In this document: piece after piece, positions 27,802 through 37,569 of the stretch
How the letters are laid out: every line of letters starts with the position of its first letter
Numbering within the stretch: position 1 is the stretch's first letter
Notes under the pieces: generated by a model
What the model was told of the DNA's origin: nothing
What the model saw: the letters and a program-made list of their open reading frames with translations, nothing else
Databases searched by the model: none
Position numbers and translations under genes: made by a program
Sequence record: MN895435.1
Length of the DNA stretch: 64,000 bases
Direction: 5' to 3' (one strand)
Origin: Escherichia phage teqhal

Positions 27802-28071
27802 ATGGCTAAAAAAGAAATGGTTGAATTTGATGAAGCTATCCATGGCGAAGACTTGGCTAAATTTATTAAAGAAGCATCTGATCATAAACTGAAAATTTCC
27901 GGTTATAATGAATTGATTAAAGATATTCGAATTCGTGCCAAAGATGAACTTGGTGTTGATGGCAAGATGTTTAATCGTCTTTTGGCTCTATATCATAAAG
28001 ATAACCGTGATGTGTTTGAAGCTGAAACCGAAGAGGTAGTTGAACTTTATGACACAGTTTTCTCTAAATGA
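27802..28071 (+). CDS. dsbA: double-stranded DNA-binding protein DsbA
   Basis: 89 aa, the T4 DsbA length; position between rnh and 33. Confidence 0.75.
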   Translation: MAKKEMVEFDEAIHGEDLAKFIKEASDHKLKISGYNELIKDIRIRAKDELGVDGKMFNRLLALYHKDNRDVFEAETEEVVELYDTVFSK

Positions 28072-28387
28072 TATTCGCCCGGTCGATGAGACCGGTCTTT
28101 CAGAAAAAGAACTTTCAATCAAGAAAGAAAAGGATGAAATAGCAAAGCTTCTTGATCGTCAAGAAAATGGATTTATTATTGAAAAAATGGTAGAAGAGTT
28201 TGGAATGAGTTATCTTGAAGCTACGACAGCATTCTTAGAAGAAAACTCTATTCCTGAAACTCAATTTGCTAAATTTATTCCTTCGGGTATAATTGAAAAA
28301 ATTCAGTCAGAAGCTATTGACGAAAATCTTTTACGTCCTTCTGTTGTTCGTTGTGAAAAAACTAATACATTAGATTTTCTGCTATGA
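28049..28387 (+). CDS. 33: late transcription co-activator gp33
   Basis: 112 aa from ATG at 28049, the T4 gp33 length; overlaps dsbA 3' end. Confidence 0.75.
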   Translation: MTQFSLNDIRPVDETGLSEKELSIKKEKDEIAKLLDRQENGFIIEKMVEEFGMSYLEATTAFLEENSIPETQFAKFIPSGIIEKIQSEAIDENLLRPSVVRCEKTNTLDFLL

Positions 28388-29037
28388 TTAAACTCCGCAT
28401 GCCTGCTGGTGGTGAAAGATACATTGATGGTAAATCAGTTTATAAATTATACTTAATGATAAAACAACATATGAATGGAAAGTATGATGTTATTAAGTAT
28501 AATTGGTGCATGCGGGTGTCTGATGCCGCTTATCAAAAACGAAGAGATAAGTATTTTTTCCAAAAGCTATCAGAAAAGTATAAATTAAAAGAATTGACTT
28601 TAATTTTTATTAGCAATCTTGTAGCTAACCAAGATGCTTGGATTGGTGATATCTCTGACGCTGATGCATTAGTATTTTATCGTGAATATATCGGTCGCTT
28701 AAAGCAAGTTAAATTTAAATTTGAAGAAGATATTAGGAATATCTATTATTTTAGTAAAAAAGTTGAAGTTTCTGCTTTTAAAGAAATCTTTGAGTATAAT
28801 CCAAAAGTTCAATCAAGTTATATTTTTAAACTACTTCAATCGAATATAATTTCGTTTGAGACGTTTATCTTGCTTGATTCATTTTTAAATATAATTGATA
28901 AACATGATGAACAGACTGATAATTTAGTCTGGAATAATTATTCTATAAAGTTAAAGGCTTATAGAAAAATTTTAAATATTGATTCACAGAAAGCTAAAAG
29001 TGTTTTTATTGAAACTGTGAAATCTTGCAAATATTAA
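28384..29037 (+). CDS. 59: helicase loader gp59
   Basis: 217 aa, the T4 gp59 length; directly upstream of gene 32. Confidence 0.8.
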   Translation: MIKLRMPAGGERYIDGKSVYKLYLMIKQHMNGKYDVIKYNWCMRVSDAAYQKRRDKYFFQKLSEKYKLKELTLIFISNLVANQDAWIGDISDADALVFYREYIGRLKQVKFKFEEDIRNIYYFSKKVEVSAFKEIFEYNPKVQSSYIFKLLQSNIISFETFILLDSFLNIIDKHDEQTDNLVWNNYSIKLKAYRKILNIDSQKAKSVFIETVKSCKY

Positions 29038-29062
29038 TTGCTTATTATAAATAGATTATAAT
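29036..29062 (+). promoter_or_regulatory. putative MotA-dependent middle promoter, overlapping a late-promoter motif, for gene 32
   Basis: MotA-box-like TTGCTTAT about 12 bp upstream of TATAAT; TATAAATA at 29046..29053. Confidence 0.45.
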
Positions 29063-29070
29063 TATCTCAC

Positions 29071-29136
29071 TGACCAGCTATGAGGTCATACATCGTCATA
29101 GCACCAACTGTTAATTAAATTAAAAAGGAAATAAAA
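29071..29136 (+). promoter_or_regulatory. gene 32 autoregulatory translational operator (pseudoknot plus A/U-rich region)
   Basis: tgacc-agctatga-ggtca-tacatcg-tcatagc gives two interleaved stems (tgacc/ggtca and gctatga/tcatagc), followed by A/U-rich sequence up to the gene 32 ATG. Confidence 0.75.
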
Positions 29137-30045
29137 ATGTTTAAACGTAAATCTACTGCTGAACTCGCTGCACAAATGGCTAAACTGGCTGGAAATAAAG
29201 GTGGTTTTTCTTCTGAAGATAAAGGCGAGTGGAAACTGAAACTCGATAATGCGGGTAACGGTCAAGCAGTAATTCGTTTTCTTCCGTCTAAAAATGATGA
29301 ACAAGCACCATTCGCAATTCTTGTAAATCACGGTTTCAAGAAAAATGGTAAATGGTATATTGAAAACTGTTCATCTACCCACGGTGATTACGATTCTTGC
29401 CCAGTATGTCAGTACATCAGTAAAAATGATTTGTACAACACTGACAATAAAGAGTACAGTCTTGTTAAACGTAAAACTTCTTATTGGGCTAATATTCTTG
29501 TTGTAAAAGACCCAGCTGCTCCAGAAAATGAAGGTAAAGTATTTAAATATCGTTTCGGTAAGAAAATCTGGGATAAAATCAACGCGATGATTGCGGTTGA
29601 TGTTGAAATGGGTGAAACTCCGGTTGATGTAACTTGTCCGTGGGAAGGTGCTAACTTTGTACTGAAAGTTAAACAGGTTTCTGGATTTAGTAATTACGAT
29701 GAATCTAAATTCCTGAATCAATCTGCGATTCCAAACATTGACGATGAATCTTTCCAGAAAGAACTGTTCGAACAAATGGTTGACCTTTCTGAAATGACTT
29801 CTAAAGATAAATTCAAATCGTTTGAAGAACTGAGCACTAAATTCGGTCAAGTTATGGGAACTGCTGTGATGGGCGGTGCTGCTGCAACTGCTGCTAAGAA
29901 AGCTGATAAAGTTGCTGATGATTTGGATGCATTCAATGTTGATGACTTCAATACAAAAACTGAAGATGATTTTATGAGCTCAAGCTCTGGCAGTTCATCT
30001 AGTGCTGATGACACGGACCTGGATGACCTTTTGAATGACCTTTAA
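29137..30045 (+). CDS. 32: single-stranded DNA-binding protein gp32
   Basis: 302 aa; zinc-binding Cys/His cluster ([15 protein letters not shown]); acidic Ser/Asp-rich C-terminal tail. Confidence 0.9.
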
Positions 30046-30067
30046 TAGATTATATTACTAATTAATT

Positions 30068-30092
30068 GGGGACCTCTAGGGTCCCTTTTTTT
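30068..30092 (+). terminator. rho-independent terminator after gene 32
   Basis: ggggacc-tcta-gggtccc hairpin followed by TTTTTTT. Confidence 0.7.
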
Positions 30093-30118
30093 ATTTCAAA
30101 AATTTTTTCACAAAATGG

Positions 30119-30147
30119 TTTACATCCTTGTCCTTCCATGGTACTAT
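30119..30147 (+). promoter_or_regulatory. early promoter
   Basis: -35 TTTACA, 17 bp spacer, TG-extended -10 TGGTACTAT, A/T-rich UP-like sequence. Confidence 0.55.
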
Positions 30148-30190
30148 ACAACTATCGGCAATACTGCTGATGATTAAAGAGGAAAATAAT

Positions 30191-30421
30191 ATGGCTAAAG
30201 TTGATATTGACATCGTTGATTTTGAATATATCGAAGAAATTATTCGTAATCGTTATCCTGAACTTAGTATCACAAGTATTCACGATGATCCCAATTATTG
30301 CAATTTTTCTATTGTCATTGAAGGTCCTCTTGAAGACCTCACCCGCTTTATGGCTAATGAATATTGTGATGGCATGGATTCTGAAGACGCAGAATTTTAC
30401 ATGGGACTGATTGAACAATAA
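30191..30421 (+). CDS. hypothetical acidic protein, 76 aa (frd.3-like position)
   Basis: AAGAGGAAAATAATATG RBS (track start 30128 lies inside the promoter). Confidence 0.45.
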
Positions 30422-30465
30422 TTATCAAGGGGCTATCAAGCCCCTATTAAAATGAGGAAACCGTA

Positions 30466-30846
30466 ATGTATACCGGTAAAAAGTATGAACTTGTTCCAAG
30501 ACTTATTGATACATTTATTAATTATAGCCCACGTTCTAATTCATCAATCGTTAAAGCTATTCGAGATAATGGCGGATGGTTTGAAGTTAAAGAAGTTTCC
30601 GTCGCTAATGGATATAAAGCAGTAAAACACATTGAATGCGCAAATGGAAAGCATTTTTACCTCAAAGATAGACTTTTAGAAATTTGCGAAGATGAATTTC
30701 ATTGTTTTCGTGAGTATAAAGAACCGACTTCTGAAGAAGATGAAGTCAAAGACAAGGTTTCTGGCGTAACAAAAATTCACTGCATTGTAGATGAAAACAA
30801 TGTAGATGAAATCATTGAACTTTTGCGAAAAACTTTTAAGGCCTAA
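30466..30846 (+). CDS. hypothetical protein, 126 aa
   Basis: GAGGAAACCGTAATG RBS. Confidence 0.5.
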   Translation: MYTGKKYELVPRLIDTFINYSPRSNSSIVKAIRDNGGWFEVKEVSVANGYKAVKHIECANGKHFYLKDRLLEICEDEFHCFREYKEPTSEEDEVKDKVSGVTKIHCIVDENNVDEIIELLRKTFKA

Positions 30847-31417: not shown

Positions 31418-32244
<827 letters not shown>

Positions 32245-32263: not shown

Positions 32264-32611
32264 ATGAATTTTAATTATTACCCTATTCTATTAGAAAAAG
32301 ATGAGAAACAGCCAAAGTGGCAGGGTCCTCAGTTTATTAAAGGCGTTTATCAATTAGTAGTTCCTAAAGACAAGATTTATAGTAGTTGTTTCACTGAATC
32401 CGCTTGCAGTATTTTCGGTAATAGTTCTCCGTATTGGAATTTTGACATAAAGCTGGATAGAAATATTGATATTTGGTTGAAAGCTATGGATATTGGTAAT
32501 ATCACGTTTGATGAGAATAATTATCATATTATTGGTCGTTTTTCCAAACGCGGTAAAGAATTATATTTCACACCTGAAATTGAGAGAAAATTTGATGCTA
32601 AACCGTATTGA
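32264..32611 (+). CDS. hypothetical protein, 115 aa, between frd and td
   Basis: ORF with weak RBS. Confidence 0.45.
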   Translation: MNFNYYPILLEKDEKQPKWQGPQFIKGVYQLVVPKDKIYSSCFTESACSIFGNSSPYWNFDIKLDRNIDIWLKAMDIGNITFDENNYHIIGRFSKRGKELYFTPEIERKFDAKPY

Positions 32612-32656: not shown

Positions 32657-33517
32657 ATGAAACAATACCAAGATTTAATTAAAGACATTTTTGAAAATGG
32701 CTATGAAACCGATGACCGAACGGGCACAGGAACAATTGCTCTGTTCGGTACTAAATTGCGTTGGGATTTAACCAAAGGTTTTCCTGCAGTAACAACTAAG
32801 AAGCTCGCCTGGAATGCATGCATTGCTGAGCTAATATGGTTTTTATCAGGAAGCACAAATGTTAATGATTTACGATTAATTCAACACGATTCGTTAATCC
32901 AAGGCAAAACAGTTTGGGATGAAAATTACGAAAATCAGGCAAAAGATTTAGGATACCATAGCGGTGAACTTGGTCCAATTTATGGAAAACAGTGGCGTGA
33001 TTTTGGCGGTGTAGACCAAATTATAGAAGTTGTTGATCGTATTAAAAAACTGCCAAATGATAGGCGTCAAATTGTTTCTGCGTGGAATCCAGCTGAACTT
33101 AAATATATGGCATTACCTCCTTGTCATATGTTCTATCAGTTTAATGTGCGTAATGGCTATTTAGATTTGCAGTGGTATCAACGTTCGGTAGATGTTTTCC
33201 TCGGTCTTCCATTTAATATTGCATCATATGCTACGTTAGTTCATATTGTAGCTAAGATGTGTAATCTTATTCCGGGAGATTTGATATTTTCTGGTGGTAA
33301 TACTCATATCTATATGAATCACGTAGAACAATGTAAAGAAATTTTGCGTCGTGAACCTATGGATTTATGCGAATTACAATTAAAATTTCCAGATGAATTT
33401 GATGAATGGGACACAGAATCGCAGGTATTTTGGTTGAGTCAATTTGCAAAGCCTCATAATTTTGTTCTTAACAACTATGTATCTCATCTGCCAATTAAAG
33501 GAAAAATGGCGGTATAA
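32657..33517 (+). CDS. td: thymidylate synthase, uninterrupted
   Basis: 286 aa continuous ORF; thymidylate synthase active-site region MALPPCHMFYQFNV. Confidence 0.9.
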   Translation: MKQYQDLIKDIFENGYETDDRTGTGTIALFGTKLRWDLTKGFPAVTTKKLAWNACIAELIWFLSGSTNVNDLRLIQHDSLIQGKTVWDENYENQAKDLGYHSGELGPIYGKQWRDFGGVDQIIEVVDRIKKLPNDRRQIVSAWNPAELKYMALPPCHMFYQFNVRNGYLDLQWYQRSVDVFLGLPFNIASYATLVHIVAKMCNLIPGDLIFSGGNTHIYMNHVEQCKEILRREPMDLCELQLKFPDEFDEWDTESQVFWLSQFAKPHNFVLNNYVSHLPIKGKMAV

Positions 33518-36390: not shown

Positions 36391-37569
36391 ATGAGCACAG
36401 TTTTTAATACAAATCCAGTTGATGTTTTAAAAGAACCTATGTTTTTTGGTTCAGGTCTTGGTATTGCGCGTTATGATATTCAACGCCATAAAGTTTTTGA
36501 AGATTTAACCGAAAAGCAATTATCATTTTTCTGGCGTCCTGAAGAAGTAAACTTAATGATGGATGCTGCACAGTTTAATAAGATTCCTCAGTATCAGCAA
36601 AATATTTTTACTAATAATCTGAAGTATCAATCACTTTTGGATAGCATTCAGGGTCGTGCGCCGTCTGCTGTACTTATGTCATTAATTTCAGACCCAAGCC
36701 TTGATACATGGGTTGCTACGTGGACTTTTAGTGAAACTATTCACTCTCGTTCATATACACATATCATGCGAAATCTTTATACTGATCCATCGAAGGTATT
36801 TGATGAGATTGTATTAGATGAAGCTATTATGAAACGTGCTGAATCCATTGGACGTTATTATGATGATGTTCTGACTAAAACTCGTTATTGGGAAAACGCT
36901 AAAGCTGATATCGAATACCAAAAAGAAATTAATGCAGACGAAGATGTTATTGAAGATGCTATTGAGCATGAGACATATTGGAAGCGTGAGCTAATGAAAT
37001 CTCTTTACCTCTGTTTGCATGTAATCAACGCATTGGAAGCTATTCGTTTTTATGTATCTTTCGCATGTACCTTTAACTTCCATAAGAACATGGAAATTAT
37101 GGAAGGCAATGCAAAGATTATGAAGTTCATTGCACGTGATGAGCAGCTTCATCTTAAAGGTACACAATATATTATTCGTCAACTTCAATCTGGTACTGAT
37201 GGCGATGAATGGGTTAAAATTGCTCAAGAGTGTGAACAAGAAGCAGTTGATATTTTCATGGAAGTTAACCGCCAAGAAAAAGATTGGGCAGTTCATTTAT
37301 TTAAAGATGGCGATGTTCCTGGATTAAATACAAATAGCATGTGGAGCTTTATTGATTACTTAACTGTATCTCGTATGAAACAGTGTGGTCTTCCATGCCC
37401 AATTACCGATGCTCCGGTTAAACATCCATATCCTTGGATTCGTGAATATCTTAATTCTGATAATGTTCAATCCGCGCCACAAGAAGTAGAACTGTCATCT
37501 TATCTTGTTGCACAGATTGATAATGATGTTGATGATAAAGTTATGATGAGTTTTAAAAAATACTTTTAA
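36391..37569 (+). CDS. nrdB: ribonucleoside-diphosphate reductase small subunit, uninterrupted
   Basis: 392 aa continuous ORF; R2-like di-iron ligand spacing. Confidence 0.9.
   Translation: MSTVFNTNPVDVLKEPMFFGSGLGIARYDIQRHKVFEDLTEKQLSFFWRPEEVNLMMDAAQFNKIPQYQQNIFTNNLKYQSLLDSIQGRAPSAVLMSLISDPSLDTWVATWTFSETIHSRSYTHIMRNLYTDPSKVFDEIVLDEAIMKRAESIGRYYDDVLTKTRYWENAKADIEYQKEINADEDVIEDAIEHETYWKRELMKSLYLCLHVINALEAIRFYVSFACTFNFHKNMEIMEGNAKIMKFIARDEQLHLKGTQYIIRQLQSGTDGDEWVKIAQECEQEAVDIFMEVNRQEKDWAVHLFKDGDVPGLNTNSMWSFIDYLTVSRMKQCGLPCPITDAPVKHPYPWIREYLNSDNVQSAPQEVELSSYLVAQIDNDVDDKVMMSFKKYF

Follow-up and report, generated by a model that had tools for sequence, protein, structure and literature searches.

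The T2/T6 allele of the gene 32 translational operator, with its leader pseudoknot, in Escherichia phage teqhal

In Escherichia phage teqhal (MN895435.1) the region 29071-29136, upstream of gene 32, represents a known element, the translational operator of gene 32 in its T2/T6 allele. It almost certainly acts as the operator does in T4, with gp32 repression nucleated at a pseudoknot. The window, here meaning the whole 64,000-nt stretch that was analysed and to which all positions refer, belongs to a T2/T6-type T-even phage of the genus Tequatrovirus. A 102-nt query covering the spacer between genes 59 and 32 together with the ATG (29038-29139) occurs at 100% identity in phages T2, T6, RB18, RB33 and many others, and 349 phage records carry it at 99% identity or better. 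The wider region 28900-29300 shows 100% identity with Escherichia phage FriedrichZschokke and 99% with T6, and matches 503 phage records, nearly all of them from Tequatrovirus.

The leader contains two interleaved stems followed by an A/U-rich tract and a ribosome-binding site (Table 1). On the plus strand the spacer reads TAA (29035-37) TTGCTTATTATAAATAGATTATAATTATCTCAC TGACC A GCTATGA GGTCA TACATCG TCATAGC ACCAACTGTTAATTAAATTAAAAAGGAAATAAAA ATG (29137). The 5-bp stem 1 and the 7-bp stem 2 are perfect Watson-Crick complements without a base in common, they are interleaved in the H-type topology with no junction base between them, and the resulting pseudoknot spans positions -66 to -35 relative to the gene 32 ATG. 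The preliminary description of this DNA had placed the stems tgacc/ggtca and gctatga/tcatagc in the region 29071-29136, and both are present there on the plus strand, at exactly these coordinates. Its proposed refutation, that the two stems could not form simultaneously, does not apply to disjoint stems of H-type topology; a single-base loop 1 crossing a 7-bp stem 2 is found in 8/8 canonical leader types considered below. Its attribution of the arrangement to gp32 autorepression is also supported, repression having been demonstrated in T4 and RB69 and being the probable behaviour of the T2/T6-type allele by analogy.

Table 1. Features of the gene 32 leader and its surroundings in the window
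Feature	Coordinates	Strand	Evidence
Gene 59 (helicase loader)	28384..29037, stop 29035-29037	+	Pfam T4_Gp59_N, T4_Gp59_C
Middle-promoter-like site: MotA-box-like TGCTTA, 12 nt, -10 TATAAT	29039-29044 (TGCTTA), 29057-29062 (TATAAT)	+	Read against T4 middle-promoter consensus
TATAAATA, late-promoter-like, nested in the middle-promoter-like site	29046..29053	+	Sequence
Pseudoknot stem 1, 5' strand TGACC (UGACC)	29071-29075	+	Sequence, pattern scan, covariation
Pseudoknot loop 1, single A (A29076)	29076	+	Invariant in 8/8 canonical leader types
Pseudoknot stem 2, 5' strand GCTATGA (GCUAUGA)	29077-29083	+	Sequence, covariation
Pseudoknot stem 1, 3' strand GGTCA (GGUCA)	29084-29088	+	Sequence, covariation
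Pseudoknot loop 2, TACATCG (UACAUCG), 7 nt	29089-29095	+	Sequence
Pseudoknot stem 2, 3' strand TCATAGC (UCAUAGC)	29096-29102	+	Sequence, covariation
A/U-rich tract, 34 nt, 82% A+T (window overall 64%)	29103-29136	+	Sequence, nested folds
AACUGU	29106-29111	+	Within A/U-rich tract
UUAA	29111-29114	+	Within A/U-rich tract
UUAAA	29115-29119	+	Within A/U-rich tract
UUAAAAA	29120-29126	+	Within A/U-rich tract
Shine-Dalgarno AAGGA	29125-29129	+	Within A/U-rich tract
Gene 32 (302 aa), both regulated gene and repressor	29137..30045	+	Pfam PF08804, PDB, T4 comparison
Intrinsic-terminator-like hairpin, 8 bp (5 G-C), then T-run	30068..30096	+	Terminator scan

The pseudoknot corresponds to an RNA of solved structure. 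The 36-nt pseudoknot RNA of T2 gene 32 has the sequence gcugaccagcuaugaggucauacaucgucauagcac (PMC5684407, Table 1), and its NMR structure is PDB 2TPK (Holland et al. 1999, as cited in PMC3014915 and PMC5684407). The window segment 29069-29104 matches this RNA at 35/36 bases, with 29070-29104 equal to nucleotides 2-36 of the construct. The seven bases uacaucg, named loop L2 in the T2 pseudoknot (PMC5684407), recur as loop 2 of the window. The only mismatch is the first base, G in the construct and A29069 in the window, which is either an engineered transcription start or a T2 variant; otherwise nothing of substance differs. It is this correspondence, rather than energy calculation, that makes formation of the pseudoknot highly probable. 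The ViennaRNA nested fold, which cannot represent pseudoknots, contains stem 2 only (-11.4 kcal/mol, z = -1.4, a z-score that says little about a pseudoknot). Stacking contributes -8.8 kcal/mol in stem 1 and -13.7 kcal/mol in stem 2, and a crude pseudoknot energy obtained from stacking and pknotsRG-style penalties is about -11.1 kcal/mol, no better than the nested fold.

The 302-aa product of the downstream gene is gp32. It matches Pfam PF08804 with E = 3e-67, is identical to T4 gp32 at 297/302 positions (98%), among them those of the FKRKST segment near the N-terminus and of the Cys/His zinc site, and matches PDB entries 8gme (full length), 1gpc and 2a1k. Residues 1-17 are the same as in T4, and so is the N-terminal cooperativity segment. 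The homing-endonuclease gene segG, present at the junction of genes 59 and 32 in T4, is absent from this junction in the window, as it is in phage FriedrichZschokke, and the order of genes is thus of the T2/T6 type. The hairpin downstream of gene 32 likely marks the 3' end of gene 32 transcripts.

Several further features of the region were noted in passing. The td gene (32657-33517, thymidylate synthase of 286 aa with a full-length Pfam match) and the nrdB gene (36391-37569, NrdB of 392 aa) are uninterrupted ORFs, and a search of the whole window against Rfam at the gathering score returned 0 families; hence neither gene contains a group I intron, unlike in T4. A 115-aa ORF without a Pfam match lies on the plus strand at 32264-32611 between frd (31636-32244) and td, two genes that abut in T4.

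The A/U-rich tract is unstructured in the predicted folds. Nested folding of 29060-29145 leaves all of it unpaired, and in the longer transcript 29070-29220 the unpaired probability averages 0.69 over the tract. An unstructured A/U-rich run up to the start codon, as had been described for this leader, is borne out by the base composition of the tract and its unpaired state in the short-leader fold. It is the proposed lattice for cooperative binding of gp32 across the ribosome-binding site.

In T4 the operator consists of two parts (PMC535899, PMC3014915). Its 5' part is a pseudoknot about 28 nt long, starting 67 nt ahead of the AUG; the adjoining part, which exceeds 40 nt and is less structured, includes the ribosome-binding site and UUAAA/UAAA repeats. 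Both the pseudoknot and the UUAAA elements are reported essential for autogenous repression, with the pseudoknot as the nucleation site, in footprinting and mutational work as summarised in PMC535899. T4 gp32 protects its own RNA from +3 to -70 (PMC535899, PMC3014915). The T4 mechanism is assigned to the window because every sequence component is present and the N-terminal cooperativity segment of gp32 is identical to that of T4. A compact H-type pseudoknot, with stem 2 stacked on stem 1, would form at the 5' end of the gene 32 mRNA or close to it. As long as single-stranded DNA is available, gp32 would be titrated onto it and gene 32 would be translated. Free gp32 in excess of the DNA sites would recognise the pseudoknot as a nucleation site, polymerise cooperatively in the 3' direction over the unstructured tract through its N-terminal domain, and cover the ribosome-binding site, so that initiation on its own mRNA would be blocked. 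With high confidence, based on the experiments in T4 and RB69, we infer gp32 binding, nucleation at the pseudoknot and repression for the window as well.

The position of the pseudoknot in the transcript leaves room for another function. The sequences TGCTTA and TATAAT upstream of the pseudoknot were read as a putative middle promoter against the T4 middle-promoter consensus, and the nested TATAAATA is an exact match to the T4 late-promoter consensus. Bases identical to 29040-29062 of the window are annotated as 'predicted middle promoter' in Yersinia phage fPS-90. Transcripts initiated from the promoter-like sites at 29039-29062 would start at about 29069-29070, the edge of the pseudoknot, and would carry it at their extreme 5' end. 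The T2 pseudoknot is described at the 5' end of the gene 32 mRNA (PMC5684407). In T4, RNase E cleaves every gene 32 transcript at -71, shortly before the pseudoknot begins at -67, and no T4 message is more stable than that of gene 32 (PMC3014915). These facts would be expected if the pseudoknot were mainly a 5'-terminal stabiliser of primary or RNase E-processed mRNA against 5'-end-dependent decay, with autoregulation residing mostly in the A/U-rich tract. We consider this unlikely as the main role: against it stand the reported requirement for both the pseudoknot and the UUAAA elements in repression, in the work cited in PMC535899, and the fact that deletion of the pseudoknot elements formed part of the operator analysis in RB69 (PMC535899). 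Stabilisation is compatible with autoregulation, and it is more likely an added role than a replacement.

A gp32 homologue is present in 2,459 phage records. Gene 32 loci were collected from IMG/VR and from named phages, and a pseudoknot finder was applied to the 130 nt upstream of each start codon. The same architecture was found in eight sequence-distinct canonical leader types, represented by T2/T6, T4, RB69 (Mosigvirus), Klebsiella phage Marfa (L017), locus L028, Serratia phage X20 (L019), E. coli phage EcS1 (L020) and Erwinia phage Cronus (L023). In all of them stem 1 has 4-5 bp, its 5' strand ending with CC and its 3' strand starting with GG, stem 2 always has 7 bp, loop 1 is always a single A, and loop 2 comprises 3-7 nt. 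The ATG follows the 3' end of the pseudoknot at a distance of 33-46 nt.

The stems covary among these leader types, which come from several genera of Tevenvirinae. In an N-padded manual structural alignment of the eight types (A2), used for stem 1, 95.8% of the cells form standard pairs, compared with 25-46% after the 3' partners have been shifted by 1-3 columns as a control; the leaders had been selected by a finder that requires pairing, which biases the paired fraction upward and leaves the compensatory changes and the slid controls as the informative part. Changes on both sides occur in 7/12 pairs, three in stem 1 and four in stem 2. The stem 1 covariation depends on the manual alignment, in which the invariant CCAG and GG serve as anchors. 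Its stem 1 columns, three bases immediately before CCAG and three immediately after GG, have no alignment freedom. The fifth, outermost pair of stem 1 is formed in only 4/8 types. A sequence-only MAFFT alignment (A1) was kept as an unbiased check on stem 2, as its gaps fall inside the stem 1 3' strand and make the outer stem 1 pairs uncountable; in it stem 2 is 100% paired and 4/7 pairs are compensatory. When the expanded pseudoknots of Acinetobacter phages KARL-1 and AB1I1T and Yersinia phage fHe-Yen9-01 (see below) are added, stem 2 has 5/7 compensatory pairs and 98.6% pairing. Covariation among the relatives thus supports both stems.

Two explanations of the conserved segment without an RNA pseudoknot are very improbable. 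The stem 2 hairpin could serve as a terminator or attenuator for read-through from gene 59, since it lies 40-65 nt past the gene 59 stop codon and appears as a 7-bp hairpin in the nested fold. However, no T-run follows the hairpin, the next bases being ACCAACUGUUAAUU, and the terminator scan reports none at the pseudoknot. In T4, polycistronic transcripts cross the region and are processed at -71 (PMC3014915), and a terminator would leave the covariation of stem 1 unexplained. About as improbable is that the sequence is conserved as DNA, for instance as a target or junction of the SegG homing endonuclease cassette. In T4 the last bases of the segG reading frame fall within the pseudoknot's 5' strand (PMC535899), and the window has no segG, both of which would fit a junction; but the compensatory changes are of RNA type, including G-U pairs on one strand only, and the element is conserved in genera without a seg gene at this locus.

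The bare pattern of the two stems is not in itself significant. A generic scan for S1 = 5 bp, S2 = 7 bp, L1 of 1-3 nt, a junction of 0-1 nt and L2 of 3-12 nt finds, in the 64-kb window, the gene 32 leader site and one minus-strand decoy near 31544, and first-order Markov random sequences of 64 kb contain on average 1.2 matches on both strands, so that the 5+7 bp pattern alone occurs at chance frequency. The decoy (about 31510-31544; 2 nt in loop 1 and 6 nt in loop 2) is antisense to an ORF and fits the expectation of 1.2 per window. The estimated expectation falls to about 1e-4 when the scan is limited to the observed loop geometry and to about 100 nt in front of a single named gene. With about 70 gene 32 leaders shuffled 10 times each, the 95th percentile was no pseudoknot, and the maximum score was 29 versus 30 observed in the window. 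The pseudoknot is more than chance because of its position, its conservation, its covariation and its match to the RNA of solved structure. Despite the pattern frequency and the decoy, functionless chance complementarity in the spacer has a negligible probability, being effectively already refuted by compensatory changes at 7/12 pairs across several genera, by the conserved geometry and distance to the ATG, and by the solved structure of a T2 RNA that the window matches at 35/36 nt.

The pseudoknot is not universal among T4-like phages. The finder detected none in the 130 nt upstream of gene 32 in Karamvirus-type loci (L007-L013, L015-16 and L085), in Krischvirus FL04, Slopekvirus KP27, Pseudotevenvirus IME-CF2 and Schizotequatrovirus V07, in Tulanevirus avDM3, Biquartavirus avDM2, Dhakavirus QL01 and Acinetobacter phage Ac42, or in marine loci at about 40% identity. 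The pseudoknot-less groups of this survey agree with the published absence of the pseudoknot from RB49 (PMC535899). Because many T4-like phages have no pseudoknot upstream of gene 32, it is dispensable to gp32 biology. A degenerate scan of viral contigs for CCAG-N7-GG-N6-24-CCAACTGT returned 0 gene 32 leaders among the 121 matches listed, and 7/7 pairing in 3 of these, by chance.

Expanded pseudoknots were observed in other phages, in Acinetobacter phages KARL-1 (L093) and AB1I1T (L089), about 30-95 nt upstream of gene 32, and in loci of the Yersinia phage fHe-Yen9-01 type (L026/L027). In KARL-1 and AB1I1T stem 1 has 8 bp (CUCUUAUA/UAUAAGAG), loop 1 has 5 nt, the junction 4 nt and loop 2 13 nt; one compensatory change in stem 2, U-A to C-G, distinguishes the two phages, and ACCAACUGUU comes next. 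The fHe-Yen9-01-type pseudoknot has longer loops. In Jiaodavirus (L087 and L097; phages Boboto and PSE-D1) a homing-endonuclease ORF ends within 3 nt of the gene 32 ATG, comparable to segG in T4, and its last codons contain CC-A-GUGUGCG-GG ... CGCGUCACAC. This may be a degenerate long-loop pseudoknot, a reading that we do not adopt given the weak resemblance, or a coincidence of the Cys-x-x-Cys coding sequence.

A different element, the hexamer AACUGU, is widely shared by the gene 32 leaders of T4-like phages. In the window it occurs directly 3' of the pseudoknot, within the A/U-rich tract, and also at 29013-29018. No other hexamer of the 90 nt preceding gene 32 recurs in as many leaders: AACUGU is present in 27/33 dereplicated ones, above any Shine-Dalgarno hexamer. 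There are 44 copies per 2,970 nt of leader, compared with 29 on the plus strand of the 64-kb window, a density about 30-fold higher; no enrichment was found upstream of other genes of the window. Loci in which the motif was noted in the 90 nt before gene 32 are L007-L016, L021, L024, L085 and L091.

Relatives without the pseudoknot and without an intergenic spacer have 2-4 copies of AACUGU. Where only 11-28 nt separate the end of gene 59 from the gene 32 ATG, gene 59 closes with the codons caA CTG Ttc ata aaa ACT GTn aaa AAC TGT. They contain three copies of the motif in three codon phases, and synonymous sites within the motif do not vary, in contrast to the neighbouring third positions of Val and Tyr codons. 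RB69-type phages, which have the long spacer and the pseudoknot, encode a similar gene 59 peptide with 0 copies of AACUGU. The footprint of T4 gp32 on RB69 RNA (-61 to -42) excludes the motif and ends just before it, and so lends no direct support to recognition of AACUGU by gp32.

We tentatively suggest that AACUGU, not the pseudoknot, is the most widely conserved element of gene 32 leaders and a candidate determinant or a stand-in for the pseudoknot; as a whole this proposal is doubtful, though worth following. The motif could be an undescribed sequence-specific determinant of gp32 autoregulation, or could act in processing or stability of the gene 32 mRNA. It could also replace the pseudoknot as the nucleation site in those T4-like phages that lack one. 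No published description of a link between AACUGU and gene 32 was found in the literature searched, which was short on older T4 work. The control of gene 32 in pseudoknot-less T4-like phages was left open by the papers of 2004 and 2010, and the AACUGU repeats offer a testable candidate for it.

Among the known gene 32 operators, that of T4 (McPheeters et al. 1988 and Shamoo et al. 1993, as cited in PMC535899) is alike, with stem 2, the loop 1 A, the next bases ACCAACUGUUAAUUAAAUU, the Shine-Dalgarno sequence and the start codon identical to the window. The T4 pseudoknot starts at -67 versus -66 in the window. Stem 1 of T4 has 4 bp, UGCC/GGUA, including a G-U pair, whereas that of the window has 5 bp, UGACC/GGUCA; loop 2 has 5 nt (AAGUG) in T4 and 7 nt in the window. 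The T4 leader contains one UUAAA repeat more, and the 5' strand of its stem 1 overlaps the end of segG, a gene that the window lacks. The differences between the window and the T4 leader are the known differences between the T2/T6 and T4 alleles.

The operator of RB69 (Borjac-Natour et al. 2004, PMC535899) shares its architecture with the window and has been studied by chemical and enzymatic probing and by gp32 footprinting, with autogenous repression demonstrated. The gp32 proteins of T4 and RB69 differ in their RNA footprint (PMC535899). Relative to the window, RB69 has a compensatory change of U-A to C-G in stem 2, a stem 1 of AUACC/GGUAU and a longer A/U-rich tract.

The gene 32 pseudoknot has no family in Rfam 15, and automated RNA annotation misses it in hundreds of Tequatrovirus genomes. 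A search of 28000-30500 at E values up to 10 returned no gene 32 family. It returned RF03084 (DUF2815 RNA) at 29083-29139 on the plus strand, and we rejected membership, the score being 19.1 bits versus a gathering score of 41.2 (E = 2.9). The match is confined to the unpaired A-rich and Shine-Dalgarno part, with the structured part unmatched, and the 3' consensus of the family, UAAaguUAAAAAGGaAaUAauaaAUG, resembles 29113-29139 of the window. DUF2815 is the Enc34-type family of phage single-stranded-DNA-binding proteins (SSB) (PMC5686142), and RF03084 is likewise a 5' leader of a phage SSB gene. Two unrelated families of phage SSB genes are thus seen to have leaders with a similar UUAAAAAGGAAAUAA-AUG 3' part, which may reflect analogous autoregulation or simply a strong AT-rich ribosome-binding site.

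Outside phages, a comparable system is the E. coli operator of rpsO, the gene of ribosomal protein S15. The rpsO pseudoknot takes in the ribosome-binding region, and S15 traps the ribosome there. The rpsO and gene 32 operators are alike in that the protein binds a pseudoknot in the 5' leader of its own mRNA and thereby represses translation, a comparison drawn in PMC3014915. An entrapment pseudoknot of the S15 type was considered for the window and rejected, since the Shine-Dalgarno sequence and the AUG are outside the pseudoknot. The window pseudoknot ends 22 nt before the Shine-Dalgarno sequence, and in place of entrapment, cooperative spreading of an SSB from the pseudoknot across the ribosome-binding site is proposed.
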